Shown here: positions 9,674 to 64,000 of the stretch, piece after piece
How positions within the stretch are numbered: position 1 is the first letter of the stretch
Layout of the letters: the number at the start of each line of letters is the position of its first letter
Origin: an uncultured Erysipelotrichia bacterium
GTDB taxonomy: Bacteria > Bacillota_I > Bacilli_A > JBKEDG01
Direction: 5' to 3'
Length of the DNA: 64,000 nucleotides
Assembly: GCA_964593055.1 (NCBI GenBank)
Contig: CAZQIG010000006.1
Location: forward strand, 28,668 to 92,667
The notes under the pieces: model-generated
Databases searched by the model: none
Told to the model about the DNA's origin: nothing
What the model saw: only the letters and a program-made list of their open reading frames with translations
Program-made: the position numbers and the translations under genes

Positions 9674-9757
9674 GCGGGTGTGGCGGAATTGGTAGACGCA
9701 CTAGACTTAGGATCTAGCGCCTTTGGCGTGGGGGTTCGACTCCCTTCACCCGTACCA
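9674..9757 (+). tRNA. tRNA-Leu (anticodon UAG)
   Basis: A cloverleaf can be drawn. The acceptor is GCGGGTG/CACCCGT. The anticodon stem CTAGA/TCTAG carries the loop CTTAGGA, which puts TAG at the anticodon position. A long variable arm CGCC-TTT-GGCG is present, the T-loop is TTCGACT and the 3' CCA is encoded. Confidence 0.85.
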
Positions 9758-45343: not shown

Positions 45344-45792
45344 ATGCACATATACAGTGGAAGGAGAGAAAAATTAAAAATGATATTCTGACTTTTTTTA
45401 GTGATTAAAAAGCATAGATTGATTTAAAAAATTAATCTTATTAAATAATTACTATTTTTTATAGAAATGTCAATAATGTTTATTTATTGAATTAAACCTT
45501 TACATTTAAAAAAAAAAATGTTAATCTGAAATGGACAGTATATAATTATACAAATATTATTTGAAAGAAATATCTTATTTAGAAGCTGTTGAGTTTTTCA
45601 TAGTTGTTACTGCTATTTATATTAGTTATAACTTATCTAAAAAGCAAGATTCAATTGTACTGTATTGAAAAAATGGTAATTATGTTGAAATATCATATTA
45701 TGCATATGATAAGAGAATATTGCTAAAAAAATTATTGTTAGATATATGAAATATAAACATGTTATTTACATAATTTTAGATTGGGGGAATCT

Positions 45793-46983: not shown

Positions 46984-47846
46984 TTGTAGAAAAATTATAC
47001 AAAAATTTTGGGACAGCAGAGGTTTTAAAAGACATTTCTCTTAATGTTGAGAAGAATAATATAGTTGCATTAATTGGTAAAAATGGTGCGGGTAAATCAA
47101 CTTTATTAGAAATTATTGAAGGATTAAGTGATTGTGATTCCGGTGATGTAAAAAGAAATTATAAAAGATTAGGAGCACAACTACAAAAAGGAGGATTACC
47201 TGCTGAATTTAGTGTTATGGAAGTTATTAAGCTTTTTTCGAATTTTAGAGATGAATATAGATACGATGAGGGTATTTTTGAGTTTTTTAAAATAAATGAG
47301 CTAAAAAATAAGAAAATAAAGTTTCTTTCAGTTGGAGAATACAGAAAAGTAATTTTAACACTTTGTTTTATAAACAAACCAGATTTTTTGATTCTAGATG
47401 AACCCACGGCAGGTTTAGATATTGAGACTAAAGTTGAATTATATGAAATAATACAGGAGTTAAAGAAAAATAATTATAGTATTTTATTTGCAACGCATGA
47501 TATGAATGAGGTTGTGAAACTTGCTGATTATGTTTATTTTATGGAAAATGGGGAAATTAAAAGAGGGTTATCAAAACATGAAGTGGAAGTAATCATTAAA
47601 AATAAGTTTGAAATTCATTTGTCAAATAATAGTGATAAATATGTTAAAAGAATTCAAGAGTACACTGATTCTTTTACAGTTTCAGATGAAAAAATAGTCG
47701 TAGAGAATATTGATTTGGAAACGAAAATTAAAATTTCAGAAGATTTTAAGGGAAAAATAATCAATGAAATAGAGTACAGTGTAGAAGAAATATTGCTTAA
47801 AGAGATTTTTGTAAATAAAAAGGGGGATAACAACTGTGAAAAGTAA
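46977..47846 (+). CDS. ABC transporter ATP-binding protein
   Basis: GKNGAGKST, LSVGEYRKVIL and LILDEPTAGLD. Confidence 0.75.
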   Translation: MLIVEKLYKNFGTAEVLKDISLNVEKNNIVALIGKNGAGKSTLLEIIEGLSDCDSGDVKRNYKRLGAQLQKGGLPAEFSVMEVIKLFSNFRDEYRYDEGIFEFFKINELKNKKIKFLSVGEYRKVILTLCFINKPDFLILDEPTAGLDIETKVELYEIIQELKKNNYSILFATHDMNEVVKLADYVYFMENGEIKRGLSKHEVEVIIKNKFEIHLSNNSDKYVKRIQEYTDSFTVSDEKIVVENIDLETKIKISEDFKGKIINEIEYSVEEILLKEIFVNKKGDNNCEK

Positions 47847-48639
47847 TTTGTTTTATTTGAAGTTTGAATTTTTATCGGTCATAAAGAAAGTTACGATGTT
47901 TTTCTTGATATATATATTTCCATTAATATTTGTATTAGTAGTTTCAGAAGTTTTAATTGTACAACACCCAGAAGCACAAAATTTTATTTTATACGGAATG
48001 ATGATATTTCCAGTTTTAGTTGTTGGTATGATTGTTCTCCCAGAGCATGTAGTTTTGTTGCGAAATACAGAGGTATATAAAAACTATAAACTATATGGTG
48101 CAAAAAAATATCAGATTATGTATACTCCTATTATAAGTTTATTAATACATCTTATTATTGTTGAGGTGATAATATTTATGTATTTTAAATTATTTAAAAC
48201 AGTTATTTTTCCAGAAAATATTGTTCTTTTTTGGGGATTGATAACATTTTGCATTCTATATTTTTTGGTATTAGGTGCATACATTGGGACTGTAATAAAA
48301 AATTCAAAACAAGCACTTATGATTGGATTGACTATTTTTGTTTTATCAATGTTAGTTGGAGGGATAACCGGTAATCTTTCTTCACTGGATGAAAATTTAT
48401 TGAAGTTTAGTCTAGCGATTCCGACATCACACTTTTCAAATATTTTCGGATATCTTTTTGAAAGCGAGAAAATTTTAAGTTTAACTGTTTCAGCTATTAT
48501 TTTAATGGCAACATTTATCACCACTTTATTCTGCTACAATTCTCTTTTTACATACGATGTAAGGAATGTAAAAAAAAGAGGTTTGTTGATATTGATAGTT
48601 ATCTTGGCTTCATTTATCTTAACTTTAGGAGGGAAATAA
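47836..48639 (+). CDS. ABC-2-type permease
   Basis: Six TM helices, coupled to the ATPase. Confidence 0.5.
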   Translation: MKSNLFYLKFEFLSVIKKVTMFFLIYIFPLIFVLVVSEVLIVQHPEAQNFILYGMMIFPVLVVGMIVLPEHVVLLRNTEVYKNYKLYGAKKYQIMYTPIISLLIHLIIVEVIIFMYFKLFKTVIFPENIVLFWGLITFCILYFLVLGAYIGTVIKNSKQALMIGLTIFVLSMLVGGITGNLSSLDENLLKFSLAIPTSHFSNIFGYLFESEKILSLTVSAIILMATFITTLFCYNSLFTYDVRNVKKRGLLILIVILASFILTLGGK

Positions 48640-48640
48640 A

Positions 48641-48901
48641 ATGAATGAAAGTACATACGAAAAAATAAAAGGGATATTAGAAAGATTAATTGTTGACAAA
48701 GATTACAAAGCTAGATTTCTAGCAAATAAAGATGAAGCACTTGAGGAATATGACTTGACTGATGCCCAAAAACTATTGTTTATGTCTTTAGATGAAAGCG
48801 AAATTAGTTCTTTAAATAAGGAGAATTTGGACGAATATTTTTCAGCTGATTCAGCTGTATATACTCCAGATATTGAAGATGAAGAGACAACTTATGAGTA
48901 G
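48641..48901 (+). CDS. Small acidic protein with a Nif11/NHLP-like leader-type N-terminus
   Basis: ERLIVDKDYKARFLANKDEALEEYDLTDAQ resembles NHLP/Nif11 leader helices. The C-terminus is acidic and lacks Cys. Confidence 0.3.
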   Translation: MNESTYEKIKGILERLIVDKDYKARFLANKDEALEEYDLTDAQKLLFMSLDESEISSLNKENLDEYFSADSAVYTPDIEDEETTYE

Positions 48902-49760
48902 AAAATACAAAATTGAAATGAAAAACAGGAAAAATGACGAATTGTCTGAACTAGTTATGTGGTATACCGTCATGAATAAAGGGTTTATTGATGATAACTG
49001 TATGCTACAAGAATTTTTAATCGAAAAAGTTATTTATAAGTGTGATGACTTAGAAAAGGAGTTTACCTTTATAAAGGATAAAACCTTTACAAACATTGAC
49101 TTTAGGATTGATAAGCATAATTTTAGAGAAAAATTTTCTAAAAATGGAAACATGTTTGATAGACAACAAGATCAACTACAAGTGGTTAAAGACTTAATAA
49201 AGCCATTATTAAAAACTCAGAGTACGTACTTGATTGTAATGCAAATTTTTGATATTTTACTATTTGAAACTGTCAAGTCACTTTCAAATTCTAAACAAGT
49301 TACTATTAGTGATAACTATTCCATTATCAAAGAGATGACAGACAAAAAAGTAGAAATAGGGGCAGGAATCTTTAGTGATGACAGTTTTTTTCTAAAGAAA
49401 GATTTCTATATGAAAAATAATGCTCATAATATAACAAATTTTTATTCTTTCAATAATGAATATGAATACAAAGTATATAAGGTCACTACTTCAAGTAGTG
49501 GAAGCAATAGATATAATTTAGCTACTAGAGGAAAAGTAATTAATTGGGCTCAATCTAAATTAGGTAGACCGTATGATAAAGGTTTTTCAAATAACAAAAA
49601 ATTTACTTCAAGTGAAGATGAAAAATACAATTGTTCTGAACTAGTATGGAAAGCGTGGAAATCAGAAGTTGGTCTTGACTTAGATAGCAATGGTGGATTA
49701 GGAGTTTATCCTAATAATATTACAAACTCTAGTAGAACAAAGTATGTAACTAAGGGGTAA
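48873..49760 (+). CDS. NlpC/P60-family (CHAP-like) cysteine peptidase domain protein
   Basis: The C-terminal block GRPYDKG...YNCSELVWKAW has the catalytic Cys in the NlpC/P60 context. Confidence 0.5.
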   Translation: MKMKRQLMSRKYKIEMKNRKNDELSELVMWYTVMNKGFIDDNCMLQEFLIEKVIYKCDDLEKEFTFIKDKTFTNIDFRIDKHNFREKFSKNGNMFDRQQDQLQVVKDLIKPLLKTQSTYLIVMQIFDILLFETVKSLSNSKQVTISDNYSIIKEMTDKKVEIGAGIFSDDSFFLKKDFYMKNNAHNITNFYSFNNEYEYKVYKVTTSSSGSNRYNLATRGKVINWAQSKLGRPYDKGFSNNKKFTSSEDEKYNCSELVWKAWKSEVGLDLDSNGGLGVYPNNITNSSRTKYVTKG

Positions 49761-49764
49761 ATTT

Positions 49765-51084
49765 ATGAAGAAAAAGCTATTAATTGTCCTTTCTGCATTA
49801 TTAGCAATAATATTAGTTGTTTCTATATATGTATACTTTCGTTTTTTCAACTATGATGAAAAAATTAAATTAGATGAAAACACGAGAATAATTATTACTT
49901 ATACAAATGGGAATAATGCAAGTGTTCCCTTTCCAGTCCCTGAAAGAGGTGAACTTTTTCAAATCGATAATAATGGTGAAGTAGCAGGTTTTACTGCTGT
50001 AAATAGTGTAATAAATCCTTATGCTATAAACTATGAAAATGGATTATTAGAAATTTTTACAAATGACAATGTATATTATGCTAGTAAAGATGGAAAAACA
50101 GAAACTATTAATAATCCAGATTTGAAAGGTGAGTATAGTCTTGCGAACAAAAATGGAAGAGATTTTGTAAATGACTATGCTTATATTGAAAAATACGATA
50201 CAAGTGTTAGAGTAGTTCCTCATGGACTTGCTTATGCTATAGAAGAGAAGGTTTTTTTTGACTTACTTGTCTTTAGTAATGAAGAAGAAGTTTACAATAT
50301 AGAAGTAGGTAGTGTGAATTATCGTGGTATGACAATAGATCAAGAAAGTGGAGACATAATATTAGTTGAAACAAGACCAATGGGTGAAGATTCAAATATC
50401 CCTATTGATTATATACCATACCATATATTGAGCTATAACGAAGATACACAAAGATATGAAACAAATAGATATGTTAATGTCCCTTATGAAGGGAGTGAGA
50501 TACCTGAAATTGTAGAAGGTAGGAAACAAGAAGACGGACTGTATGTAGCTAGTGTAGATGCATATTTTCATAACGGATTTTTATATAGCATTCAAAGTGT
50601 GACTGACCAAGAAGCTATGAAATATGGAGGTCGATACATTGAAAAAATCGATTTAAAGGAAGAGAAAATAGTATCTACACGTAAAATAGATGCGTCTGAG
50701 GATAGAATTAATCACGCATTTATGTATTACTATGAAATTGATGGAACAATATATATGTTTTCAGAGTTAATAGATAAAGATGAATATTACTATGACACAT
50801 ATAACATTGAAACCAATGTATATGAGGAGTATAAAATAGACTTTTTTGAAGAAAATGAATACATTGATGAATGCGAAGAAGCAAGCTCTTGCGGTGTTTA
50901 TTTTAAACTAAGCAATAATAAGATATATGCATTTCAATTTAATAGTGAGACACAAAAAGGAACAATTATAGATTTTGATTACCAAAACAATGAAACTCAT
51001 GGAGTTGTTTTAAATTTTGACATTCCAGATGTTAAGGGCATTGAATATGCATTTTTTAGTGACTTTGAAGTTATTGAGGATTAA
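49765..51084 (+). CDS. Membrane-anchored or secreted hypothetical protein
   Basis: An N-terminal TM/signal segment followed by 400 aa with no recognisable motif. Confidence 0.4.
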   Translation: MKKKLLIVLSALLAIILVVSIYVYFRFFNYDEKIKLDENTRIIITYTNGNNASVPFPVPERGELFQIDNNGEVAGFTAVNSVINPYAINYENGLLEIFTNDNVYYASKDGKTETINNPDLKGEYSLANKNGRDFVNDYAYIEKYDTSVRVVPHGLAYAIEEKVFFDLLVFSNEEEVYNIEVGSVNYRGMTIDQESGDIILVETRPMGEDSNIPIDYIPYHILSYNEDTQRYETNRYVNVPYEGSEIPEIVEGRKQEDGLYVASVDAYFHNGFLYSIQSVTDQEAMKYGGRYIEKIDLKEEKIVSTRKIDASEDRINHAFMYYYEIDGTIYMFSELIDKDEYYYDTYNIETNVYEEYKIDFFEENEYIDECEEASSCGVYFKLSNNKIYAFQFNSETQKGTIIDFDYQNNETHGVVLNFDIPDVKGIEYAFFSDFEVIED

Positions 51085-51256
51085 TGAAAATAGAGCAATA
51101 GAGCTAGATTAATAGCTCTATTTTTTAGTACTTCCTTTTCCCAAAAAATACAATAAAAAAGTTCGACCATTGATATTTTAATTGAAAATAGTATATCAAC
51201 ATTAAAAAACTATTATTGAGGAATTGTTAAGAATTATTATATTTACGTTATATTGC

Positions 51257-51466
51257 TTGCTGTAGCAAAATAAGTGTGTTAGTATGTTAGTAATGAATAG
51301 CACGCAAGACGTGTCTATTTATTAACATTTCATCAACACACTACCAGTTTGACCATCTATAGTTCCACCGTGGTCAACGTGACTGGTACCATAATTGTTT
51401 AAAGAATCTCCAAAAGTAAGTGATGGTATATTTATATATATCATGCTAACTTTTGGAGATTTTATA
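51257..51466 (+). ncRNA. Copy C of the conserved promoter plus structured small RNA, with terminator
   Basis: TTGCTG, then 17 nt, then TAGTAT, then ATG 8 nt downstream (MNSTQDVSIY, then stop). The hairpin GCACG/CGTGT has a different loop. CCAGT...ACTGG encloses a perfect TTGACCA/TGGTCAA stem, compensatory relative to copy B. It ends ...GGTACCA at 51391. The terminator ATCTCCAAAAGT...ACTTTTGGAGATTTTAT is at 51405..51466. Confidence 0.5.
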
Positions 51467-51726
51467 TATTTTAACACTAATATAAAAGTGTATTATTCAA
51501 AAACCAATAATCTTAAGTTGTATAAAATCATTATAAGATATAAAAAAATATTGTAGTTTTCTTTGTATGAGATAATAACTTGTTTAATTATGATCAGCTT
51601 TAAACAAAACATTGAATTTTATATTTACATATGTTATTATAAAAATATATTGAATTATATTTAAGTATATTTAATAATAGGATAACATTTATTTAGTATA
51701 AACAACTTCAATTGAGGAGGAATATT

Positions 51727-52149
51727 ATGAAAAAAGTAATTTTAGCAACTGGAGTGTCAATTTTTTTATTTTTAAGTATTGCAAACCAAGTAAGTGCAGC
51801 TGATCATAATCATGAATTTGTATTTAAAATCAAAGGTTACTATCAAAATTCATATTCTAGTCAAAGATATCGTCAAACTGGTTCAAAGGATAATCCATGG
51901 AAAGCGAATCTCGTAACGTCTAGTGAAGGTAGCGGAACGAAAATGCATTTTTGGTTAGATGCACCAGGAAATGTTATTAGCAGCCCAGTAGCTTCTAAAG
52001 TTTATAAAGTAACACAAGGGACTGGAGCAAATTATTATCCTGCTTATAGTCGTGCTAACAAAAGAAATGTACGTCTAGGATCAGAAAATAATAACTATAG
52101 TACACGTGCATATACTATCTCAGGATTTTGGGATGAGGAAACTTGGTAA
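51727..52149 (+). CDS. Small secreted protein, candidate lactococcin-972-like bacteriocin
   Basis: A Sec signal ends at ...VSA. The mature part is about 115 aa, Ser/Tyr/Asn-rich, and ends ...GFWDEETW. An ABC plus membrane-protein immunity-like operon follows. The start was moved to MKKV, which has a GAGGAGG RBS. Confidence 0.35.
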   Translation: MKKVILATGVSIFLFLSIANQVSAADHNHEFVFKIKGYYQNSYSSQRYRQTGSKDNPWKANLVTSSEGSGTKMHFWLDAPGNVISSPVASKVYKVTQGTGANYYPAYSRANKRNVRLGSENNNYSTRAYTISGFWDEETW

Positions 52150-52227
52150 GATTTAACGTTATAATAGTATCTTAGTTTAATGCAAACATCAATAAATGTT
52201 ATCCACTTTTAAAGTGAGGGGTATATT

Positions 52228-52971
52228 ATGAAAGCACAGCTATATAGAATCAATATTGGAAGAGCTAAATATATTACACTTGTATACTTTATGGTACTAG
52301 CTATTTATGATTCTATTTTAATTTTGAGTAATAACGATATTTTTTTTGGTGATCGATATTTTTATGGGAACTATCTATTTATCCAATCAGGGTTAATAGG
52401 CCATTTTGCAATTTTCTTCTTTTTTCTTACATTTCCAATAATATTTTATATTCTATTTTTTAGGCATCTTAGTACAGACAGTAAAAACAATATTTTGTAT
52501 ACACAAATATCAAGGATGAAAATCGCTAAATATATTTATCGTAACTATATCGTTATTTCTTTATCTACTTTTATTATTATGATGATGTTTCAAATTGTAA
52601 ATATATTTATTGTTTGGACGCTGTTTTATATAGGAGGACTAGAGTTAGATATTCCATTGGAATCTATGTATATTTTCAAGAAAATTGTAATTCACACTTT
52701 AATGTTTTCAACAGTTATTACTTTATATAATACTTTGTTTACAGGGGTATATTTATTAAAGATTAATCAATATATTTCTTTGGCTGTGACTATAGGATAT
52801 GTCTATATCGCACAAATGGTTTTTAATTTAGGAAATATTTTACAGCCATTTACAGAATATTCTTCAGAGTATGTTTTAAAAAACTTTTCATCATTCGCAA
52901 TTTTCAATTTACTTTTAATAATAATGTTCATAATTTATAATGTAAATAAGAAAGACTTTTTAAATGAGTAG
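52228..52971 (+). CDS. Polytopic membrane protein (ABC-2 / immunity-type permease)
   Basis: 247 aa with six TM helices. Confidence 0.45.
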   Translation: MKAQLYRINIGRAKYITLVYFMVLAIYDSILILSNNDIFFGDRYFYGNYLFIQSGLIGHFAIFFFFLTFPIIFYILFFRHLSTDSKNNILYTQISRMKIAKYIYRNYIVISLSTFIIMMMFQIVNIFIVWTLFYIGGLELDIPLESMYIFKKIVIHTLMFSTVITLYNTLFTGVYLLKINQYISLAVTIGYVYIAQMVFNLGNILQPFTEYSSEYVLKNFSSFAIFNLLLIIMFIIYNVNKKDFLNE

Positions 52972-53677
52972 AAGACAGATCATAAAATATTTAATATTAT
53001 TATGTAGTATTGAAGTAATTATAGCAATTATTTCAAATTTTTCCATTTATAGTTCTAAACTAGGTGAATTTGATAAAGTATTATCTGTAGTTACTTCAGG
53101 GATAGGCTATAATTCTTTTCTTTTTTATTCTTTCATTGTAGTATTATGTTATTTGATTCTGATAAACAAATCTTTAATAAATGATAATAAAATTGTAATA
53201 AGATATGGACGAAAAAAAATAAATGTTAATAACTTAAAAAAAGTTGTTATGTGGGCTATAATCTTTGGTTTTTCAAATATAATGGGTACTTTTTTTACTA
53301 TAGCAATTTTGTACGGTCATACTTATTATAGTATTGAATATTTATTCTTTGTTTTGGTTAATTTCTTATTTTACAGCAGTATCCTTTGTGTTTGGGGACT
53401 CTTGCTGATAATGGTGAAAAGGTATACTGGATCTATACAATCCATTTTAATACTAATTATATCCAGTAGCTCTATTTATATTTCTTTAAAATATAGTGAA
53501 CACTATTATTTGTATGAATATTTAAATTTTACTAGGTTTTATTGGGCTATGCAGAATGACATTACTATTAGCATTAACATGATAAACTTAGCTTATCATT
53601 TATCATCATTGTTTTTAATAATATATGTACTATACTCATTTTCCAAAAAGGTGGTTTATACACATGATTATTACTAA
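52964..53677 (+). CDS. Polytopic membrane protein
   Basis: 237 aa with six TM helices. Its start overlaps the preceding gene. Confidence 0.45.
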   Translation: MSRRQIIKYLILLCSIEVIIAIISNFSIYSSKLGEFDKVLSVVTSGIGYNSFLFYSFIVVLCYLILINKSLINDNKIVIRYGRKKINVNNLKKVVMWAIIFGFSNIMGTFFTIAILYGHTYYSIEYLFFVLVNFLFYSSILCVWGLLLIMVKRYTGSIQSILILIISSSSIYISLKYSEHYYLYEYLNFTRFYWAMQNDITISINMINLAYHLSSLFLIIYVLYSFSKKVVYTHDYY

Positions 53678-54332
53678 AGATAGAGTAATTCTAATAATAA
53701 TGATTCTATTGATAACATTTGTACAGGCACTTTCACATGGGTTTTTCACAGATTCGAATGAATTTATATTTTTGACTAAATTGTTCATTGAATCTCCCAT
53801 AATTATGTCATCACAATTAATAATGTTTGTTGTTTTGATAATATCATTTAAGGGATATTTAAAAAGTATGTTTTTAAATATTGAATTACTAAACTTTGTT
53901 AGACAAGATAGAATTTATAAAGTATTAATAAAATATTTATTAAGGTTAGTAGTTTCATTGATAATATATCTTGCCTTACATTTAGTGCTATATCAACTTT
54001 TTTGTAATATATTTGGATATAGTGAGGGAATTATTTTCTTTAACAATATAACTTTTGTAGAATTGATTAATTACAATTTATGCATTTTACTTTATCTTCT
54101 GTCTTCTAATCTCTTACTATGTTTATTTCGAACACATATTTTTGATGTAATTATAATTGCTGCTATAATATTAGAAAACATCAGAGTAATTAGTACAAAT
54201 GCTGACTTTAGTATAATACCATTGTGGAATGCTAATATAATCGAGCTTCCTTATTTAATAATTATGATTATATCGCTTATTGTAGCAACTTATTTTTTTA
54301 TAAAAAAAGGAGATAAATTAAATGACTATTAA
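53625..54332 (+). CDS. Polytopic membrane protein
   Basis: 235 aa with six TM helices. Confidence 0.45.
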   Translation: MYYTHFPKRWFIHMIITKDRVILIIMILLITFVQALSHGFFTDSNEFIFLTKLFIESPIIMSSQLIMFVVLIISFKGYLKSMFLNIELLNFVRQDRIYKVLIKYLLRLVVSLIIYLALHLVLYQLFCNIFGYSEGIIFFNNITFVELINYNLCILLYLLSSNLLLCLFRTHIFDVIIIAAIILENIRVISTNADFSIIPLWNANIIELPYLIIMIISLIVATYFFIKKGDKLNDY

Positions 54333-54957
54333 AGTAGAGAATTATAGTAAAACAATAAAAAAAAATCAAGTTTTAAAGAATATTAATGCTACTTTTGAAA
54401 GTGGTAAAATTTATGGTTTAATTGGACATAATGGAAGTGGTAAAACAATGCTGTTAAGAGCTATAACAGGTTTAATATGTCCAACTAAAGGTAAAATATA
54501 TTTAGATAACAAGGAAATGTTTAAAGATTTTGATATTATGCCAGATGTTGGTATTATTATCAATAATCAAGAAATGATTCCTTCCCTTACTGCCAAAGAA
54601 AATATGGAATATTTACGCAAAATTAACCTTAAAGTTCAACCTGAAAGGATTTTGGAGGTTTTAAAAAGAGTTGGCTTAGAAAGACAAATAAATAATAAGG
54701 TGAAAAATTTTTCATTAGGTATGAAGCAACGTTTAAACATTGCACAAGCTATTTTTGAAGATCAAAAAGTTATTTTGTTAGATGAACCTACAAATGCTAT
54801 AGATAGTGAAGGAATTATAGATATATTAGAGTTGTTGAAAGAACTGAAAAGTGAAGATAAAATAATTATTATCGCAACACATGATACAGGATATTTCAAA
54901 GAAGTGTTTGATGAAATTATCAAATTAAAGGAGGGAGAACTTGTTGAAGTTTCTTAA
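54322..54957 (+). CDS. ABC transporter ATP-binding protein
   Basis: GHNGSGKTM, LSLGMKQRLNIA and ILLDEPTNAID. Confidence 0.8.
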   Translation: MTIKVENYSKTIKKNQVLKNINATFESGKIYGLIGHNGSGKTMLLRAITGLICPTKGKIYLDNKEMFKDFDIMPDVGIIINNQEMIPSLTAKENMEYLRKINLKVQPERILEVLKRVGLERQINNKVKNFSLGMKQRLNIAQAIFEDQKVILLDEPTNAIDSEGIIDILELLKELKSEDKIIIIATHDTGYFKEVFDEIIKLKEGELVEVS

Positions 54958-55555
54958 GAGTTGGATTTTAACTATAATTTTAATATGCATACTAGTTGTT
55001 TCTTTGTTTGTGTATTATAATAATATGATTTTATCTTATAGTGATAGGAACATCATCGATGAATTTTATGCTGAATTTGAAAATATGACACTTATAGTTG
55101 GTGAAGATATATCAAAAGGTTTTTACGATATTCAGTTAAATGATGGTACAATAATATTGCATAACGATATTTTGGAATATCGTAATTATGTTAGAAGTGT
55201 TCCTTTAAATAATGGAGATAGTTTAAAAATTGAGGGTCAAGCTGTAATTAGAAATCATCAAAAGCGTGAAAGAACAGATGATGTTACAGAATCAGGTTAT
55301 TATCTTATTGAAGAGGATCTTTTCACTCTAGATGATGAGTTAGGAAATACATATAGCGTTTATAGTGAGTCTCTAAATTGTGCTTTTTCACTTATAACAT
55401 TTCAAAATTTTGGATTAATCTTTTACAGCGATATTTATGAACAATACTATTCAAATGGTTATGCAAAGGTTGTTCCATTTACTACTAAGGATGCAGTACT
55501 TTATATAAAAAATGATAATGAATGTCAATTAACTACATCTAGGGGGCTTAAATGA
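54941..55555 (+). CDS. Membrane-anchored hypothetical protein
   Basis: An N-terminal TM helix and a soluble domain. Confidence 0.35.
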   Translation: MLKFLKSWILTIILICILVVSLFVYYNNMILSYSDRNIIDEFYAEFENMTLIVGEDISKGFYDIQLNDGTIILHNDILEYRNYVRSVPLNNGDSLKIEGQAVIRNHQKRERTDDVTESGYYLIEEDLFTLDDELGNTYSVYSESLNCAFSLITFQNFGLIFYSDIYEQYYSNGYAKVVPFTTKDAVLYIKNDNECQLTTSRGLK

Positions 55556-56010
55556 TAAGAAATATAATTTTAGTATTAATGATAGCTTTTCTCATAATAA
55601 TGTACTTTGTTTATCCACTTCCTAGTGAATATGCATCAAATATTTCTTATGTAAAAAAAGACTTTAATATCATTCAAGAGGAACAAAATGACTATTTTGT
55701 ACTGAAGTATAATGAAGACTACTCTTTGTTTATCACAGCAGATCTAAGCAATAATATCAAGATTAGCGTTGCTATATTAGATGCATATACAGGAAATTTA
55801 ATAAAAGAGCTTGCTTCAGACATTACATATGAGCTATATCGTGAAAAAGAATTAATTAATTATGAATTTTTATATGACGATTCAAAAAATTGTGTAAGTG
55901 AAGGATTAGAATTGAAAATTATTTATAATGATGATTTTGAAAATCCAAACACAATAAATATTGGCCTAGATTTAGATGATGATTTTTGTGGAAATGAGGC
56001 AAATTTATGA
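55552..56010 (+). CDS. Membrane-anchored hypothetical protein
   Basis: An N-terminal TM helix. Confidence 0.35.
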   Translation: MIRNIILVLMIAFLIIMYFVYPLPSEYASNISYVKKDFNIIQEEQNDYFVLKYNEDYSLFITADLSNNIKISVAILDAYTGNLIKELASDITYELYREKELINYEFLYDDSKNCVSEGLELKIIYNDDFENPNTINIGLDLDDDFCGNEANL

Positions 56011-56465
56011 AAAAAAATTTACAATATATAGCTATTGTATTTTCAATTGTATTATCAGGATGTAATAGAAGTCCCGAAGAGGAACTAGACTATGGAAACG
56101 AATTTTCAGATATGGGTGAAGTTGAGCATGTGGTTGATAATAATATTAGTGTAATTTTTCACAAAAAATTTGATACAGAAAAATATGAGCTTAAGATAGC
56201 ATATTTTGATAGAAAGACTAACAAAAAGGTAAAGGAATTTGATTTTTTAATAGTTGATACACTTGGAGATGATGAGTTATTATATTCAATAAATGGCGGA
56301 GGGTTAACTGTTAAGCCAATCTATAATGCTAATACACAATGCTATACTACAGAAATGGATATTACTATTGCATATGCTAAAGACAATAAACTATTTGAGA
56401 CAAAAGATATAACAGTTGATCAAACAAATGATGGATATCCATTTATATATTGTATAGATAAATAA
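56007..56465 (+). CDS. Lipoprotein
   Basis: Lipobox LSGC. Confidence 0.45.
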   Translation: MKKNLQYIAIVFSIVLSGCNRSPEEELDYGNEFSDMGEVEHVVDNNISVIFHKKFDTEKYELKIAYFDRKTNKKVKEFDFLIVDTLGDDELLYSINGGGLTVKPIYNANTQCYTTEMDITIAYAKDNKLFETKDITVDQTNDGYPFIYCIDK

Positions 56466-56675: not shown

Positions 56676-57007
56676 ACGTCATTTACAGTAGTTGATAACC
56701 GATTAGGACTTAAAGGTTGTTAAATTGAAAGATAAAAACTATTGCAACGGACAGTTGAACAAAAATTGTATAGAACTGTATGTAACTAATTATTATAAAT
56801 AAAATATATTGCAAAGTTTAAAAGAGTGCTAGTAAGATAAGAACTAGCACTCTTTTTGTTTGCAATAATATAACAGTAATTTAGTGATTCGTTAAATAAT
56901 GTTAAGAAAATGTATAATAGAAAATGCAGGGATTTAGTTACTATATTTTGTATTAAAAAAAATTAAAACTAATTTTTAAATATATCGCACATAAGGGGTG
57001 GTTTAAC

Positions 57008-58180
57008 TTGAAGAAAGATAGTAAAAAGATTTATGGATATATACGTGCATCTACAGAAGATCAAAAAAAGCATGGATATAGTGCTGAGGAACAAAAACGT
57101 AAAATAAAAGGCTATTGTGAATTACACTATGATAGTTATGAGCTAATCATAATTGATGATTCAGGATACTCTGCGTGGAAGAAGAACGTAAATAGACCAG
57201 GAATGACAAAAGTGATGAAAGAGGTAGATGAAATTGATATTTTTATCTTTTATGACATTGATAGGTTTTCAAGATAAATTTTAGATGGTCTAACTTTTTT
57301 TACAAAACTTCAATCAGCTAATGTTAAGATAATTTCATTAGTAGAAGAATTGAATTTAGATACAGCAGATGGAATGGCATTTGCACAGATTAAACTTGTG
57401 CTTTCACAATATAAATCATCCAAGATATCAGAAAAAACTAGATTTGGACTTTTAGGAAAAGCAAAAAAAGGTCAGTACCCCTTTGGTAACAAACCACTCA
57501 TAGGTATTTCAAAGGACGAGAATGATATCTTATATTATGATGATGAAATTCATATTGTACGTGAAATTTATGAGTTGTATGTTAATTGCGAATATAGTTC
57601 TGAATTCATAGCGTACTTATTTAGAGAAAAATATCCGCAGTATAGTTGAGGAAAGAACTATCCACTTGTATTGCTTAGAAAAACTATTTATAGAGGCTAT
57701 ATTATGATTTCTGATGAAAAAATTTATTTAATTGAGCCAATATTTAGTGAGGAAGAAATTGAAAATTTAAAAAGTATTCAAAATAATGAAAGGTTTATTA
57801 CGAACAATAACTATAAGTATAAAGTCAATGTTTATTATAAAAACAAAAAGATGCATGTATATTCAAAAAGTAAAAAAATGAGTAATGGTAAAATAAAGAA
57901 TTATGCATATTATTATGCACGTGAAAATGGAGAGAAGATATTGAATATACCTGAGAGCAAAATCGACAAAGAAGTTTTAAAACATCAAGTCATAGCAAAA
58001 CGTAAAAATATTGAAGAAAGATTGAAAACCCTAAATCATGCTGATAAGTTATTGAAACAAGGAAAGATAACAAAAGAAAAGTATGCCTATATTGCGAAGA
58101 TCAATTCTAAAAATAAAAATAGCACAATGAAAATAATTGTTAAAAGCAAAGATTTGATAGTTATAGAAGAAAATCAGTGA
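57008..58180 (+). pseudogene. Serine recombinase pseudogene in three frame fragments, paralogue of 34003..35163
   Basis: The first fragment has IYGYIRASTEDQ. Fragments 2 and 3 align with the intact recombinase (KAKKGQYPFGNKPLIGISKD... and KTIYRGY...KNYAYYYAREN). There is an in-frame stop at 57278 and a stop/frameshift near 57650. Confidence 0.6.
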
Positions 58181-58251: not shown

Positions 58252-58407
58252 CAATACTTATTTAAAAAGCTGATTAAAAGTAATTATAAATCCATTGAGG
58301 AATTAGAAGTGGATGCAGAGTTTGTAAATAACTATAATTACTTTAGAACACATGCGACACTTAATTATCGATTACCTGCTGGATATAGGTTAAATAATAT
58401 TAGATAG
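58252..58407 (+). pseudogene. C-terminal relic of an IS3-family (DDE) transposase
   Basis: The open frame with no start codon reads ...SIEELEVDAEFVNNYNYFRTHATLNYRLPAGYRLNN. This matches the IS3 OrfB tail (IEELE...YI.YYN..R.H..L.Y.SP..Y). Confidence 0.35.
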
Positions 58408-58605: not shown

Positions 58606-59772
58606 ATGAAAAGAGAAATTGAATGGTATACACAAGAATATTTAAGAGTAAATAATAATTCCAAGTATGAAAGAAAAAATAAAATATCTAAAGAAAACTT
58701 TGTCAGAATGATAGAGGATAATACTTGTATAAATGGAAGTCAAGCCTTAAATACACCTGTAAAAATTGAATGGCACATCACAAAAAAATGCAATTTAAAA
58801 TGCAAGTTTTGTTATTCTTCTGCTATTGAAAAAAAAGTTGATGAATTAAGTAGAAATGAAATTGATAAAGTTATCAATGATATTCATAAAAATAATGTAT
58901 TAGAAGTTCAAATTGAAGGAGGTGAGCCTTTTTTACATTCGGAACTTACATACATATTGAAAAGATTGAAGGAAAATCATATTAGGGTTAGGTTATTAAC
59001 AAATGGAACTGTGGTAAATGAAAGCGTCTTAAAAACTGTAAAGGAATTGTTTGATGAAAATGATGTATTACAAGTCAGTCTTCATGGTCACGATAGTGAA
59101 ACTCATGATAATATTGTTGGACTAAAAGGTTCATTTCAAAACGTTATCAGATTCTTTGAAAAAACAGAAGAACTTAATATAGCAACTAGAGTGAGTTGTG
59201 TTGTATCAACTAAAAATATTCAGTATTTGAGAGAAATGATAGAATTACTTTTAAACTATAAAAATATTGTAACATTTGTTACACAACCTATAATACCTAT
59301 TGGAAGAGCTGAGAAGAAAGAAACTGTTCCCAAACATGATTTACTGAAAGCTTATTATGATTTGAGAGATCTATCTAATTCTATCCATCTAGCATTGTTG
59401 TTAGGTCATGCTTATGAAATAGAGTTATTAGCAGAGTACATGCTAAAATTTGGTAAAAAACAAGACCGCACTTATTGTGCTGCAGGAAGAGCAAGGCTAC
59501 ATATTGATGAGTCAGGAAATATATATCCATGTCATTTTTTGGTCGATGAGGAATTTCATTTAGGAAATATAAGAAAAGATAGTTTTGCTAAAGTTTGGCA
59601 TGGCGAAAAAATCCAGATTATTAGAAATGGAAGAAGTGAAGATAATTATTGTTCAAAGTGTAAATTGAAGAAAAATTGTACAAGAAAAGGGTTATGTACC
59701 TCATATGTAAACGGTGGAATAAACAATAAGCCGATAAACTGTAATATTAATGAAAATATGATTATTAAATAG
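58606..59772 (+). CDS. Radical SAM / SPASM-domain enzyme, the first RiPP maturase
   Basis: The CxxxCxxC motif (CNLKCKFC) is at residues 62-69, after a 55-aa N-terminal extension. A Cys-rich SPASM-type C-terminus follows (CAAGRARLHIDESGNIYPCHF...CSKCKLKKNCTRKGLC). Confidence 0.8.
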   Translation: MKREIEWYTQEYLRVNNNSKYERKNKISKENFVRMIEDNTCINGSQALNTPVKIEWHITKKCNLKCKFCYSSAIEKKVDELSRNEIDKVINDIHKNNVLEVQIEGGEPFLHSELTYILKRLKENHIRVRLLTNGTVVNESVLKTVKELFDENDVLQVSLHGHDSETHDNIVGLKGSFQNVIRFFEKTEELNIATRVSCVVSTKNIQYLREMIELLLNYKNIVTFVTQPIIPIGRAEKKETVPKHDLLKAYYDLRDLSNSIHLALLLGHAYEIELLAEYMLKFGKKQDRTYCAAGRARLHIDESGNIYPCHFLVDEEFHLGNIRKDSFAKVWHGEKIQIIRNGRSEDNYCSKCKLKKNCTRKGLCTSYVNGGINNKPINCNINENMIIK

Positions 59773-59781
59773 GGAGGAAAT

Positions 59782-60843
59782 ATGCAAAATATATTAGCTG
59801 ATTGGTTAGATAATCATAATAAAACTAGAATTTTAACATCATCTGAAACTACATATGATAAAATGGTGCATGATAAAAAATGGAACAAAATGTATTTAGA
59901 TAATTCGAAAGGAATTTTTAGACCACTAACTCCACAAGAACCGATAAATTGGCAAAAAAAAGTATTCATCGAACTATATAAAGATAAAATATCAAAGTGT
60001 GGGATAAATCCAGTAGTACTTGATATAGGATCAGGTTCAGGATATCCTTCAATCAGTGTTTGTGATATTGCCAAAAAGGTTTATTCAGTAGATTTTTCAA
60101 AAGAGTTACAAAAAATTGCTAAAAAAAATATTTTGGAATTTGAAAAAAAGAATATTGAAGTCGTGCATGCGAGGGGTGAGAATCTACCTTTTGAAGATAA
60201 TGTATTTGATTGTGTAATTGCTTCACATTTTATTGAATTTTCAAAAGATGCGAACAAGTGCATGCAAGAAATTTCTAGAGTTTTAAAAAAAGGAGGATCT
60301 TTTGTATCGCTTACTAGTAATTGGGATATGGCTTTGAATTCTAGTTTTGGATATTTAGATGGTGAAAGAATTTTATATCCTGCATTAAGAGCAGAAAAAG
60401 TTTCGATTAAAGGTGTAGAATATTTAAAGTATAGAGTGTGTAGTAAGGAACCGATGCTTGAAAATACATACTATGTACTTCTAGGTGATAATGAATATAT
60501 TGATGTGTTAGTAAAAATCATAAATAATGGTTATTTGAATCTTGCAATCGAAACGTTAAACAAAATTGAGATCAAACAGATTGATAATGCAAGGTGTCAT
60601 CAATATAATGAGAAAAGCATTGTAAATTTATTTAATGATAATAATTTTGCGATTGAATCAATGCATGGGGTTAGAATTCCTATATATGAGTTTATAAAAA
60701 AATTGATGGATAATAAAGACTTTGATTTTAGTTTTTTTGAAAAAAACTATGAATTATTATCAAAAGAAATGATAAACATCGTGAGAACAACTTCACCAAT
60801 ACTTGGATTTGATATGTTCATAAGTTCAATAAATAATAAATAA
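59782..60843 (+). CDS. Class I SAM-dependent methyltransferase
   Basis: Motif I is VLDIGSGSGYPS and the post-I motifs are VYSVDFS and FDCVIAS. It sits between two rSAM genes. Confidence 0.7.
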   Translation: MQNILADWLDNHNKTRILTSSETTYDKMVHDKKWNKMYLDNSKGIFRPLTPQEPINWQKKVFIELYKDKISKCGINPVVLDIGSGSGYPSISVCDIAKKVYSVDFSKELQKIAKKNILEFEKKNIEVVHARGENLPFEDNVFDCVIASHFIEFSKDANKCMQEISRVLKKGGSFVSLTSNWDMALNSSFGYLDGERILYPALRAEKVSIKGVEYLKYRVCSKEPMLENTYYVLLGDNEYIDVLVKIINNGYLNLAIETLNKIEIKQIDNARCHQYNEKSIVNLFNDNNFAIESMHGVRIPIYEFIKKLMDNKDFDFSFFEKNYELLSKEMINIVRTTSPILGFDMFISSINNK

Positions 60844-60846
60844 CTG

Positions 60847-62151
60847 ATGGATGGTGAGAAAATGAACTTAAGATTAAACAAGAGGGCACAGCTAATTGAA
60901 GGAGAAGATAGTGCTGTTTTAAACATTATCAAAAAAAATTACAATTATACTTATAAAATAAATAAATCTTTTTATAAAATTTTAATTTTTTTACTGACAA
61001 ATAATGATTATAAAAAAATTATTAATGAATTAGTACAAAGAAGCGATATGGTGAGTGCTAAATTTCTTGAAGAGATTAATGAAATGATTGATAAAGAAAT
61101 TTTAATTGAAACTGAGGAATTAGTTTATGATCAATATCAAATCAAAAAATATGATAGCCATGTGGGTATTTCAAGAATATTTTTTGAAGTCACAAATGAT
61201 TGTAATATGAAGTGTATCCATTGCTATAATGAACGCAATCAAGATAATAAGTATCTGGATTTAAATATTTTAGAAAAATTATTAATGGAAGCACATGAAT
61301 TAGGAGTTTGTTTTGTAGATGTTACTGGAGGAGAAGCAACTCTACATCCACAAATTAGAGATATTTTACTTCTTTTTACGAAGTATGGTATGTTTATAAA
61401 TCTTTATACAAATGGATTATTATTAGATGAAAAATTTTTACTTTTTTTAGAAAAAGAATGTAGACTATCAAGCATAATTTCAAGTATAGATAGTATAAAT
61501 CCTGAGGTTTACAATAACTTTAGAAAAACAGAAAAAGCTTATGAAGTAGTAGTTGATAATTTAAAAGTAATCAAAGATATAGATATTGATTTACGTATTA
61601 ATGTTACTATACATGAAGAAAATATAGGTGAAATTGTAGAAATTGCGAAATATGCAAATGATATATTGGGGGCTGAGTCAGTAGTAATTGCTCCAATAGT
61701 ACAGGCTGGCAATGGTAAGTTAACATCTACTGCAGAAATTGATAAAAATGAAATCTTAGATGCACAATTTGAAGCATATAAGAAGCTTGATTTTGAGACA
61801 ATTAATAATATAAACCTTGGAACAAATACAAGGTGTGGAGTATTTGAAAGCATGATTTATTTCTCACCTGAATTCGAAGCTTATGTTTGTCCGACACTTA
61901 CGAAATACGAGAGTGATGAATTTATTTTAGGAAAATACCCTAAAGACAATCTCTTAAAAATTTTTAGAAGTCTTTTGGATAGAGAACATAATTATGTTTG
62001 TGAAGAATATGATAATTGTAAATATTCAAAACTTTGTATGAGTGGTTGTAGAAGTAGAGCATTCTTAGAAACGAGTAAAATTAATGGTATTGACAAATAT
62101 ATGTGCGAATTTTACGAGCATTTATCAAAAAAATATCCGAACCTTTTCTAA
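60847..62151 (+). CDS. Radical SAM / SPASM enzyme with an N-terminal RRE-like (PqqD-like) domain
   Basis: The N-terminal 110 aa have a winged-helix-like pattern (KSFYKILIFLLTNNDYKKIINELVQRSDMVSAKFLEEINEMIDKEILIE). CNMKCIHC follows, then the SPASM Cys cluster (C...CPT...CKYSKLCMSGCRSRA). Only 60 nt separate it from the precursor gene. Confidence 0.8.
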   Translation: MDGEKMNLRLNKRAQLIEGEDSAVLNIIKKNYNYTYKINKSFYKILIFLLTNNDYKKIINELVQRSDMVSAKFLEEINEMIDKEILIETEELVYDQYQIKKYDSHVGISRIFFEVTNDCNMKCIHCYNERNQDNKYLDLNILEKLLMEAHELGVCFVDVTGGEATLHPQIRDILLLFTKYGMFINLYTNGLLLDEKFLLFLEKECRLSSIISSIDSINPEVYNNFRKTEKAYEVVVDNLKVIKDIDIDLRINVTIHEENIGEIVEIAKYANDILGAESVVIAPIVQAGNGKLTSTAEIDKNEILDAQFEAYKKLDFETINNINLGTNTRCGVFESMIYFSPEFEAYVCPTLTKYESDEFILGKYPKDNLLKIFRSLLDREHNYVCEEYDNCKYSKLCMSGCRSRAFLETSKINGIDKYMCEFYEHLSKKYPNLF

Positions 62152-62212
62152 TTTTGTCACATGCTTTTCCTTGTTATGTCAATTAAGAAGAATGTTGAAG
62201 GGATGATTAATT

Positions 62213-62368
62213 ATGAATAATAAAAAAATTGATAAAGAAATAGAAAAATTAATATCTGATTTAAAGATTGAAATTACTCCTGAAGTTTTAGAAGTAGTAG
62301 AAATAAGTCCTGATATTCCATCTGGTGGAACTAGTCATTGTTCAGGAACAAGTACAAGTGTTTATTAA
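62213..62368 (+). CDS. 51-aa RiPP precursor peptide candidate, not in the supplied ORF track
   Basis: Translated by hand: MNNKKIDKEIEKLISDLKIEITPEVLEVVEISPDIPSGGTSHCSGTSTSVY, then stop. The RBS is GAAGGGA. The leader-like part is acidic and helical and ends in GG. The core is Ser/Thr/Gly-rich with one Cys. Confidence 0.55.
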   Translation: MNNKKIDKEIEKLISDLKIEITPEVLEVVEISPDIPSGGTSHCSGTSTSVY

Positions 62369-62447
62369 ACAGTTTAAGTAATATAGATTAAGCACTTAGA
62401 TATAATGTGTGAAAAGCATGTGCTAAAGTTAAAGAAAAGGGGATTAT

Positions 62448-63596
62448 ATGGTTTTTTGTGAAATAACATTATTGTGTAATTTGAATTGTGACTTTTGCTA
62501 TAATATAAAGTCAGAAAGTTATTTAATGAATAACAAGATATTTGAAAGAATACTTGATATATTGAAAGAAACAGATTTACTACTCCATATTACAGGTGGA
62601 GAGCCAACGATACATCCTAAATTAAAGGAATATATTTCTTTGTGTAAGAAAAACAGTTTAAAATATAGTATTAGTAGTAATGGTACTAGTGTTTCAAAAA
62701 TTATTAATGTTTTAGAAAAATATAAGCCAATTTCAATACATTTAAGTCTTGATGGTAATGAACAATATCATGATAATATAAGAAGTTCAACTGGACTATA
62801 TAAAAATAATATGCAAATTATTAATTGTGCTAATATCAATGGTATAGAAGTTGGGGTTCAATTTACTGTAACGAGTAAAAATGTTTCTATGCTTGAATCT
62901 GAAGTATTAAACATGTGCAATAATTTGAATGTAAATACAATTAAAATTACCAAGAACTGTTATATAGGAAATGAAATATTTGATAATGATATTATTAATG
63001 CTGTTAAATCGACTCACGGTAATAATAAATATAATATTAATGTATGTACTGAAGTAATGAATAATCAGCAACTTAAATATCATGTAAATAAATTAATTAA
63101 TAGTCAATCAATGATTGTGTTTAAGCCTAATGGATACATTCATCCGTATTTTGGTTTATCCTCTGACTGGGATTATATTCATGTAGATGATATTAACGAT
63201 ATCTCTTTGATTGATAAGTATTTTAAATATATTTTTTTGATAATTTTGTCTAAAAATAATGAAGTTTTTAATTTTGAAACAGTTGATTTTAATAAAGTTC
63301 TTTATGATGGATATATTGATTTAAAAAATAAAAAAGCAAAATACAAACTCAATTCAAGATACATAATTAGATATGATTTTGTTTCGTATCTATATGACTG
63401 CGAAATGAAAAGTGTTTTAAAAATAAGTAATGTATTAGGAGCAGTTCTAGATTATTGCAGAGAGGGATGGAGAGATGATTTAGAAATACTTTATTATTTA
63501 ATGCAAAAATGTTATGATGTAGACTATGAAGATGTACAAAAAATATTAAAAATTTTGCGATATAAAAACTTTATTACAACGAATTTAATTGATTAG
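62448..63596 (+). CDS. Radical SAM enzyme (third) with no clear SPASM cluster
   Basis: CNLNCDFC is at residues 10-17. HITGGEPT is the SAM-binding GGE motif. Confidence 0.7.
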   Translation: MVFCEITLLCNLNCDFCYNIKSESYLMNNKIFERILDILKETDLLLHITGGEPTIHPKLKEYISLCKKNSLKYSISSNGTSVSKIINVLEKYKPISIHLSLDGNEQYHDNIRSSTGLYKNNMQIINCANINGIEVGVQFTVTSKNVSMLESEVLNMCNNLNVNTIKITKNCYIGNEIFDNDIINAVKSTHGNNKYNINVCTEVMNNQQLKYHVNKLINSQSMIVFKPNGYIHPYFGLSSDWDYIHVDDINDISLIDKYFKYIFLIILSKNNEVFNFETVDFNKVLYDGYIDLKNKKAKYKLNSRYIIRYDFVSYLYDCEMKSVLKISNVLGAVLDYCREGWRDDLEILYYLMQKCYDVDYEDVQKILKILRYKNFITTNLID

Positions 63597-63606
63597 GGGT
63601 TGTGAA

Positions 63607-64000
63607 ATGATAAAAATTAAGAATATGACATTTGCTTACGAAGAAAAAAATATTTTTGAAAATTTGGATTTAGATATCAAAAATGGTGAAAAGGTTGCAC
63701 TTTTAGGTCATAATGGTGCAGGGAAAACAACTTTAGTTAAGTTAATTGCTAAGTTATTAAAACCACAATATACTGATAAATTTAATACTTACGATAGTAT
63801 TTCTGTAGTTTTTAATAGTAATCAATTATATGATGATTTAACTGTGTTAGATAATTTGAAATTGTTTGCTCACTTGTATAAAAAGAATGTTAGCGATGAT
63901 TTTATTCAAAAATATTTAATACAAGTTGGAATACAAAAATATATTGATGCAACTGTTGGTTCACTGTCTACTGGATATAAACAGAGAGTTAATATTGCTA
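63607..64000 (+). CDS. ABC transporter ATP-binding protein, 3'-partial, probable exporter or immunity component of the cluster
   Basis: Walker A GHNGAGKTT. No N-terminal C39 peptidase domain is present. Confidence 0.75.
   Translation, partial: MIKIKNMTFAYEEKNIFENLDLDIKNGEKVALLGHNGAGKTTLVKLIAKLLKPQYTDKFNTYDSISVVFNSNQLYDDLTVLDNLKLFAHLYKKNVSDDFIQKYLIQVGIQKYIDATVGSLSTGYKQRVNIA

Follow-up and report, generated by a model that had tools for sequence, protein, structure and literature searches.

A candidate biosynthetic gene cluster for a peptide that is made on the ribosome and then modified post-translationally (RiPP), encoding three radical S-adenosylmethionine (rSAM) enzymes, a methyltransferase (MT), a small precursor peptide, and an ATP-binding cassette (ABC) ATPase, lies at positions 58606–64000 of a 64,000-nt stretch of DNA (the window) on contig CAZQIG010000006.1 from an uncultured Erysipelotrichia bacterium. 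We read it, with a probability of about 80%, as an intact and functional RiPP operon of a rare, uncharacterized radical SAM family, of which the window holds the minimal form. The reading draws directly on gene order, domain architectures, orthology and synteny, purifying selection on the peptide, and rarity, and the cluster probably encodes a natural product of presently undescribed structure. A first-pass annotation of the DNA had described six codirectional genes with gaps of no more than 100 nt; the list of open reading frames (ORFs) and inspection of the sequence bear this out, placing all six where they had been reported, with gaps of 3–79 nt (9, 3–18, 61, 79, and 11 nt in gene order):

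58606–59772, + strand: rSAM1, 388 aa, radical SAM enzyme with a full seven-Cys SPASM domain
59782–60843, + strand: class I methyltransferase (MT), 353 aa
60847–62151, + strand: rSAM2, 434 aa, RiPP recognition element (RRE), radical SAM core, and seven-Cys SPASM-like domain
62213–62368, + strand: precursor peptide, 51 aa, between rSAM2 and rSAM3
62448–63596, + strand: rSAM3, 382 aa, radical SAM core with a C-terminal RRE-like domain
63608–64000 (window end), + strand: ABC ATPase, N-terminal 131 aa, cut by the window end

Every cluster ORF in the window is intact, with a ribosome-binding site, and the iron–sulfur motifs are complete and the catalytic residues conserved. The set formed by the peptide, rSAM1, MT, rSAM2, and rSAM3 turns up in six or more independent metagenomic lineages with GC contents of 26–50%, and reciprocal BLAST recovered orthologues of the four enzymes from every sufficiently long locus. 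Since several unrelated metagenomic lineages share both the set and the peptide in conserved form, the grouping is not attributable to chance. Only about five true homologues of rSAM2 were found among 5.8 billion clustered proteins, each accompanied in its locus by a homologous small peptide; homologues restricted to cofactor-maturation contexts, raised in the first-pass annotation as one finding that would undo its proposal, were not seen. With a 51-aa precursor encoded beside modifying enzymes and an RRE in rSAM2 that is supported by an AlphaFold2 model and Foldseek, the cluster is, on the strength of that model, a RiPP locus.

The precursor, whose ORF is preceded by a GAAGGGA ribosome-binding site, reads MNNKKIDKEIEKLISDLKIEITPEVLEVVEISPDIPSGG followed by TSHCSGTSTSVY, with the predicted leader/core boundary between the two segments. 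The leader would thus span aa 1–39 (62213–62329) and the core aa 40–51 (62330–62365), with a predicted Gly-Gly cleavage site. The core contains a single Cys (Cys43), as had been noted at the outset. A profile search of the 5.8 billion proteins recovered 15 homologous precursor clusters, all 15 of which carry the motif E-[VI]-S-[PA]-[ED]-[LI]-P-S-G-G-[TGS]-S-H-C-[SL], which likewise has one invariant Cys and corresponds to aa 30–44 (62300–62344) of the window peptide; the invariant PSGG directly precedes the predicted core. Synonymous codons differ beneath the invariant residues, including AGY/TCN switches at Ser, so the conservation acts at the peptide level as purifying selection. Beyond the motif, precursors of the minimal loci have a longer, variable tail that mostly begins with Gly (GTSTSVY, GSRMGSR, GNRLTTK, GTSVCP), while those of the extended loci described below continue with -V-x-S. 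The C-terminal -VY of the window peptide is confined to its own lineage, other tails being -SVSS, -SVGS, -GSRMGSR, -SVCP, and more. The precursor has no curated family match in NCBIfam, and its SCIFF and sactipeptide models gave none either; the model for thiazolylpeptide-type bacteriocin precursors (NF033400) scores 14.6 bits against a cutoff of 30, and over the leader region only.

Among the enzymes, rSAM2 ties the cluster most closely to known peptide maturases. Pfam assigns it a radical SAM domain (PF04055, 73.0 bits) with the motif CNMKCIHC, and its true start is probably M6 at 60862, since orthologues begin with MNLRL and a GGAG lies upstream. Both domains flanking the core escape Pfam profile detection and were seen through orthologue alignment and structure prediction. 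At the C-terminus, the alignment shows seven invariant Cys with the unusual spacing CX5CX5CX3C, which is probably why Pfam makes no SPASM call in the window protein; two orthologues do carry the call. At the N-terminus, the RRE (aa 7–89, window 60865–61113) was found neither by the Pfam PqqD model nor by a PDB profile search with the RRE alignment. Among the NCBIfam models, AlbA and SkfB align with rSAM2 along its whole length, though weakly. In the PDB profile search with rSAM2, SkfB ranked first (1.3e-26), with an alignment that takes in the N-terminal domain. The AlphaFold2 model (mean predicted local distance difference test score 83.3, predicted template modeling score 0.86) has an N-terminal β-sheet followed by three helices, and Foldseek returned full-length matches to CteB (1.4e-17), SkfB, SuiB, and TigE, all RRE-bearing peptide maturases. 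The modeled structure makes rSAM2 a peptide maturase of the CteB/SkfB/SuiB type. The RRE-like N-terminus assigned to it in the first-pass annotation is therefore upheld by structure rather than by profile, and the SPASM Cys clusters assigned to two of the rSAM enzymes hold by Pfam for rSAM1 and by the seven invariant Cys and the orthologues for rSAM2.

The first enzyme, rSAM1, carries PF04055 (86.9 bits; motif CNLKCKFC) and a SPASM domain (PF13186, 48.8 bits). Its invariant Cys lie at positions 62/66/69 and 291/309/349/352/358/364/379, the C-terminal seven in canonical SPASM spacing. An extension of about 50 aa at the N-terminus is conserved, and the orthologue alignment reveals no RRE. Orthologues with 39–48% identity occur in every complete locus, and the gene adjoins MT in three of the four architectures. 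The PDB profile search led to SkfB, CteB, and SuiB, and the best NCBIfam match is MftC (TIGR03962), at 138.1 bits against a cutoff of 265 over a full-length alignment. As no enzyme of the cluster reaches its NCBIfam cutoff, MftC being the best of the matches, the initial impression that the cluster fits no characterized family stands.

The MT was correctly recognized as a class I SAM-dependent enzyme (Methyltransf_11, 81.1 bits). Its Rossmann domain covers approximately aa 58–190, and aa 190–353 form a family-specific C-terminal half; orthologues in other loci are 30–49% identical. LahSB and CypM methylate the termini of RiPPs, and both (LahSB, 6uak, 1.2e-14; CypM, 7wzg, 8e-8) are among the PDB profile matches. 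Those matches are confined to aa 58–190 and generic to class I methyltransferases: uncharacterized archaeal and bacterial methyltransferases score higher, and the last 160 aa are found in this family alone.

The third enzyme, rSAM3, has a radical SAM core (PF04055, 62.2 bits; motif CNLNCDFC) from aa 1 to about 170 and lacks auxiliary-cluster cysteines. PF04055 and the CxxxCxxC motif are thus present in all three rSAM enzymes, as reported earlier. A family-specific middle region follows with the motif KPNGY[IV]HP[YF]FGLxxxW[DN], and then a C-terminal RRE-like winged-helix domain (aa 298–378, 63339–63581) that the first-pass annotation had missed. The domain's predicted AlphaFold2 topology fits the winged-helix RRE fold of three strands and three helices, and in other loci it is encoded by a separate gene of 93–110 aa. 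The PqqD model (PF05402, cutoff 23.4) comes close to its threshold on the 93-aa version from locus L010, a short contig (20.3 bits, E = 6.8e-4). A word-indexed homology search with rSAM3 returned only the query, and an exhaustive HMMER search of 1.84 billion representatives found about six proteins that align past the generic radical SAM core.

Because the ABC ATPase is cut by the window end, its context was read from L001 (GCA_019826165.1), a sibling metagenome assembly contig that is 99.97% identical to the window over 11.5 kb. There the ATPase is complete at 289 aa, with the PF00005 domain recorded on the gene; the Walker A motif GHNGAGKTT is visible in the part encoded by the window. It is followed by two ABC-2 permeases of 227 and 224 aa, whose match to ABC2_membrane is weak, and, 560 nt past these, by a secreted 531-aa protein with a C-terminal C39-like peptidase domain (Peptidase_C39_2, 27 bits against a cutoff of 24).

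Comparison of the loci distinguishes minimal from extended forms. The minimal form (the window and L001, L002/3, L013/14, and L015) has the order rSAM1–MT–rSAM2–peptide–rSAM3 followed by an exporter. The extended form (L004/5, L006–9, L010, and L011) adds a second SPASM enzyme, a B12-type radical SAM methyltransferase-like protein, and an HprK/ScmC-like protein of about 750 aa, and encodes the rSAM3 C-terminal domain as a separate gene of 93–96 aa; the L010 contig is cut within these extra genes. Another locus, L102, is of minimal type with a separate 110-aa domain gene and a major facilitator superfamily (MFS) exporter. Every complete locus has an exporter, whether of the ABC-2, ABC_membrane half-transporter, or, in L102, MFS type.

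Two observations concern the extended loci in particular. The protein of about 750 aa (L004 15198–17483, L006 15510–17783, L011 15921–18179) contains two weak HprK/ScmC-like P-loop regions, and the precursors of these three clusters all end in Ser (-SVxS). HprK-like kinases phosphorylate the C-terminal Ser of some lasso peptides, and the pairing is reminiscent, by analogy, of those enzymes. In human-gut relatives, including one from a Hadza sample, the extended cluster stands beside an agr-type quorum-sensing module (L006 3725–7040, L007 947–2067) composed of AgrB, a 47-aa peptide, a histidine kinase, and a LytTR regulator, which suggests that production there is controlled by cell density.

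The family is very rare and undescribed, and the window cluster is not unique but the minimal form of that family. When the precursor motif was scanned for as exact degenerate DNA, 241 million JGI metagenome records yielded five matches and 2.9 million viral contigs yielded none. No family member was present among 185,579 species-representative genomes, where the best hits were generic maturases with 26–29% identity, or among 72,556 plasmid records. A literature search on the motif, the accessions, and comparable multi-rSAM/HprK RiPP systems yielded nothing relevant.

What follows on the leader/core boundary, RRE–leader binding, the chemical steps, export, and bioactivity is a model that we infer from these data. 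The conserved, alternating, β-strand-like PEVLEVVEIS segment of the leader and the PDIPSGG junction would probably be bound by two RRE-type domains, the N-terminus of rSAM2 and the C-terminus of rSAM3. PSGG would form the leader/core junction, with Ser-His-Cys as the modification site; the core would open with the invariant x-S-H-C-S and run on into the variable tail. With two auxiliary Fe–S clusters, rSAM2 would most likely abstract a hydrogen atom and close a small thioether ring between the sulfur of Cys43 and a carbon in some nearby residue. A second oxidative step may fall to rSAM1, which has a SPASM domain and no RRE of its own, and MT may methylate its product or a neighboring His, Cys, or terminus. 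A third radical step, such as epimerization or another C–H functionalization, would be the task of rSAM3, which has no auxiliary cluster. The ABC-2 transporter would then serve product export, immunity, or both. Leader removal would occur after Gly-Gly, in this lineage possibly by the secreted C39-like peptidase encoded downstream; the Gly-Gly junction and the Peptidase_C39_2 protein together support the idea of cleavage at this site. The extended loci may add C-methylation specific to the tail and possibly phosphorylation of the C-terminal Ser; because they pair the B12-type rSAM methyltransferase and the HprK-like protein with -SVxS precursors, tail-specific tailoring on a common Ser-His-Cys scaffold is suggested.

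A bolder version, which we offer tentatively as a possibility, is that the invariant Ser-His-Cys is the substrate of undescribed chemistry. Three rSAM enzymes, two with and one without a SPASM domain, would act with the MT to build a compact, cross-linked or heterocyclic, methylated pharmacophore, for example a His–Cys or Ser–Cys linkage with a methylated imidazole. The family would then be a new RiPP class, in which two RREs order the enzymes on one leader.

Several observations weigh against the reading as a functional RiPP operon and against this chemistry. The chemical steps are predictions from sequence and fold. A single Cys cannot form the classical multibridge hairpin of sactipeptides and ranthipeptides, which leaves the fold class of rSAM2 as the sole basis for the predicted thioether; SuiB, TigE, and PqqE share that fold yet make C–C bonds or other products. 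The second RRE is also open to doubt, as PF05402 reaches only 12.9 bits (E = 0.15) on the rSAM3 C-terminal domain of the window, and hhalign places this domain in register with the rSAM2 RRE at a probability of only 3%; NCBIfam gave no match to the domain and a PDB profile search was negative too. As for leader removal, double-glycine leaders classically follow the consensus LSxxELxxIxGG, with which the precursor is out of register, and no C39-like peptidase occurs at the other loci; the one here, at 560 nt beyond the permeases, may be unrelated.

The rival accounts differ in whether they dispute the family, the role of the product, or the integrity of the locus. That the cluster is a divergent member of the sactipeptide/ranthipeptide group with extra tailoring enzymes is unlikely, although the resemblance is substantial: like SkfB (6efn), CteB (5wgg), and AlbA, rSAM2 combines an N-terminal RRE, a radical SAM core, and a C-terminal Cys-rich auxiliary-cluster domain, CteB and SkfB are its best structural matches, and its gene adjoins a small Cys-containing precursor and an ABC system, as do those of such maturases. 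The subtilosin alb operon, too, contains an ABC system. Identity to SkfB/CteB-type maturases in structural alignments is nevertheless only 15–18%, and the AlbA, SkfB, StsB, and PapB models score 44.8–94.3 bits against cutoffs of 300–850. Membership among the sactipeptides was rejected on the scores of rSAM2 against AlbA (71.8/850) and SkfB (62.3/300) and of rSAM1 against StsB (93.2/625), together with the one core Cys where known hairpin topologies have three to six. Membership among the ranthipeptides was rejected on PapB (cutoff 340), which gives 93.8 bits on rSAM1 and 60.8 on rSAM3, and on the missing SCIFF match. Three of the four conserved enzymes, rSAM1, rSAM3, and MT, have no counterpart in those systems and are conserved here to the same degree as rSAM2, and the …PSGGxSHC… precursors are unrelated to sactipeptide or SCIFF precursors. 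Maturation of a peptide-derived redox cofactor in the manner of mycofactocin or pyrroloquinoline quinone is very improbable. In its favor are MftC as the top curated match for rSAM1, a short and invariant core like those of cofactor precursors, and, for rSAM1, an RRE that would probably act in trans, as for MftC; MftA ends in -GVY, and the window peptide likewise ends in -VY. The analogy was rejected because the MftC score lies far below its cutoff and the -VY is not conserved in orthologous precursors. In addition, neither MftB, MftD, MftE, nor MftF was found in the window or L001, no partner dehydrogenase is present, and an exporter is found in every complete locus.

A different objection leaves the biosynthetic logic unchanged and assigns the product another role, that of a secreted signaling or quorum-sensing peptide, as with streptide-type radical SAM peptides. 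We consider this role rather improbable. In its favor, a motif that is invariant across hosts of 26–50% GC is easier to reconcile with a conserved receptor or target than with an arms-race bacteriocin, and L006 and L007 lie directly beside the agr-type module with its AgrB, histidine kinase, and LytTR regulator. Against it, no sensor or regulator adjoins the window locus, the ABC-2 ATPase with two permeases is an arrangement typical of immunity or export, and the linkage to mobile elements together with the patchy distribution resembles that of bacteriocin islands. That the locus is a decaying, nonfunctional remnant is scarcely credible. It does sit immediately 3′ of a recombinase pseudogene and an insertion sequence (IS) remnant, but its six ORFs retain their ribosome-binding sites, Fe–S motifs, and catalytic residues, identity across the sibling assemblies is 99.97%, and the peptide is under purifying selection throughout the family.

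Further known systems were compared with the rare radical SAM family that we favor. The SynChlorMet (Scm) cassette, as defined in NCBIfam/TIGRFAMs, comprises an HprK-like ScmC, a PqqD-like ScmD, and the radical SAM/SPASM enzymes ScmE and ScmF. It is similar in combining several PqqE-like radical SAM/SPASM enzymes with a PqqD-like domain, and the extended relatives add their HprK/ScmC-like 750-aa protein; one distant rSAM2 homologue is annotated as ScmE. The window, as a minimal form, differs in having no HprK-like gene, and membership was rejected on the scores for ScmE (115.4/400), ScmF (86.4/400), and ScmC (30.5/125, with the protein of the extended type), the 93-aa protein giving no match. 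Thiopeptide membership was likewise rejected, the precursor falling below the NF033400 cutoff and neither the window nor L001 encoding YcaO, dehydratase, or pyridine-synthase genes. The radical SAM peptide epimerase EpeE/YydG (8ai1) also counts among the closest known systems.

Peptides modified by radical SAM enzymes are a rich source of novel enzyme chemistry, narrow-spectrum antibiotics, and signaling molecules, and new families turn up regularly. This one is marked out by its enzyme load, with four conserved tailoring enzymes for a one-Cys core of about 12 residues, and by the invariant Ser-His-Cys motif, the dual RREs that we propose, and its rarity. It corresponds to no curated family and, functionally, to no family with a solved structure, and we found no paper on it. 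The biosynthetic genes of this compact operon amount to about 5 kb and occur naturally in a minimal and an extended version; the system suits heterologous expression, which would stand a fair chance of uncovering a cross-link or residue modification that is new.

Signals of internal regulation were sought within the operon. The gap between the precursor and rSAM3 shows no RNA stem-loop or attenuator structure (minimum free energy −6.7 kcal/mol, z = +1.17), a simple terminator scan found no terminator-like sites within the operon, and promoter-like matches in this AT-rich DNA do not exceed the shuffled expectation.

Upstream of the cluster lie the two mobile-element relics that the first-pass annotation had noted:

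57008–58180, + strand: large serine recombinase pseudogene, three ORFs with in-frame stops in the sequence
58309–58407, + strand: transposase-tail-like remnant, 32-aa ORF ending in YNYFRTHATLNYRLPAGY, resemblance judged by eye

The recombinase is split into fragments at 57008–57277 (89 aa), 57350–57649 (99 aa), and 57671–58180 (169 aa), the first of which matches the Resolvase domain (PF00239, 52.8 bits). The 32-aa ORF looks like the C-terminal tail of an rve/IS3-type transposase. Mobile elements adjoin several other loci as well, with a resolvase in L002 and IS66 in L013/14; orthology of the window and L002 recombinases was rejected, their 26% identity being generic serine-recombinase similarity. 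Horizontal acquisition, which the first-pass annotation had suggested from this adjacency, is only partly sustained. GC content is 0.24–0.29 in the cluster and 0.23–0.29 in the flanks, with no base-composition shift at the cluster boundary, and a compositional signature of recent transfer is thereby ruled out; the case for acquisition therefore depends only on the neighboring mobile elements and the patchy distribution.

In the 540-nt spacer upstream of the recombinase pseudogene, a perfect, strong hairpin followed by a T-run (AGAGTGCTAGT...ACTAGCACTCTTTTT) occupies 56822–56857; the simple terminator scan did not report it. On the other side of the cluster, the 531-aa C39-like protein (L001 13926–15521) has a truncated 215-aa paralogue further downstream, the two lying within L001 13926–17194, and the C-terminal part of the paralogue matches the window's 152-aa protein at 55552–56010 (ASDITYELYREKELINYEF...). 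As this downstream paralogue matches a protein upstream of the cluster, domains appear to have been shuffled or duplicated on both sides.

In the more distant upstream region (window 1–45000), host genes include an LtaS-like lipoteichoic acid synthase, PepA, DinB, and a tRNA-Leu (9674–9757). Most large ORFs there are without an NCBIfam match, GC content is about 25%, and the host appears to belong to a poorly sampled low-GC Gram-positive lineage outside the species-representative genome set. Next, after an 860-nt gap holding only very short ORFs, comes what may be a further small unit for immunity or a secreted product, at 45781–48639, in which genes for an ABC ATPase and an ABC-2 permease directly follow that for a DUF6365 protein (PF19892, 86 bits). 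Between that unit and the RiPP cluster, a codirectional run at 48873–56465 encodes a Peptidase_C92-like protein, a 439-aa protein with no clear function, a DUF2712 secreted protein (105.7 bits), three polytopic membrane proteins of about 240 aa, an ABC ATPase (54322–54957), and proteins of 204, 152, and 152 aa whose hydrophobic N-terminal segments resemble signal peptides by eye. Lying just upstream of the RiPP cluster, the run has the look of a second module for transport or immunity.

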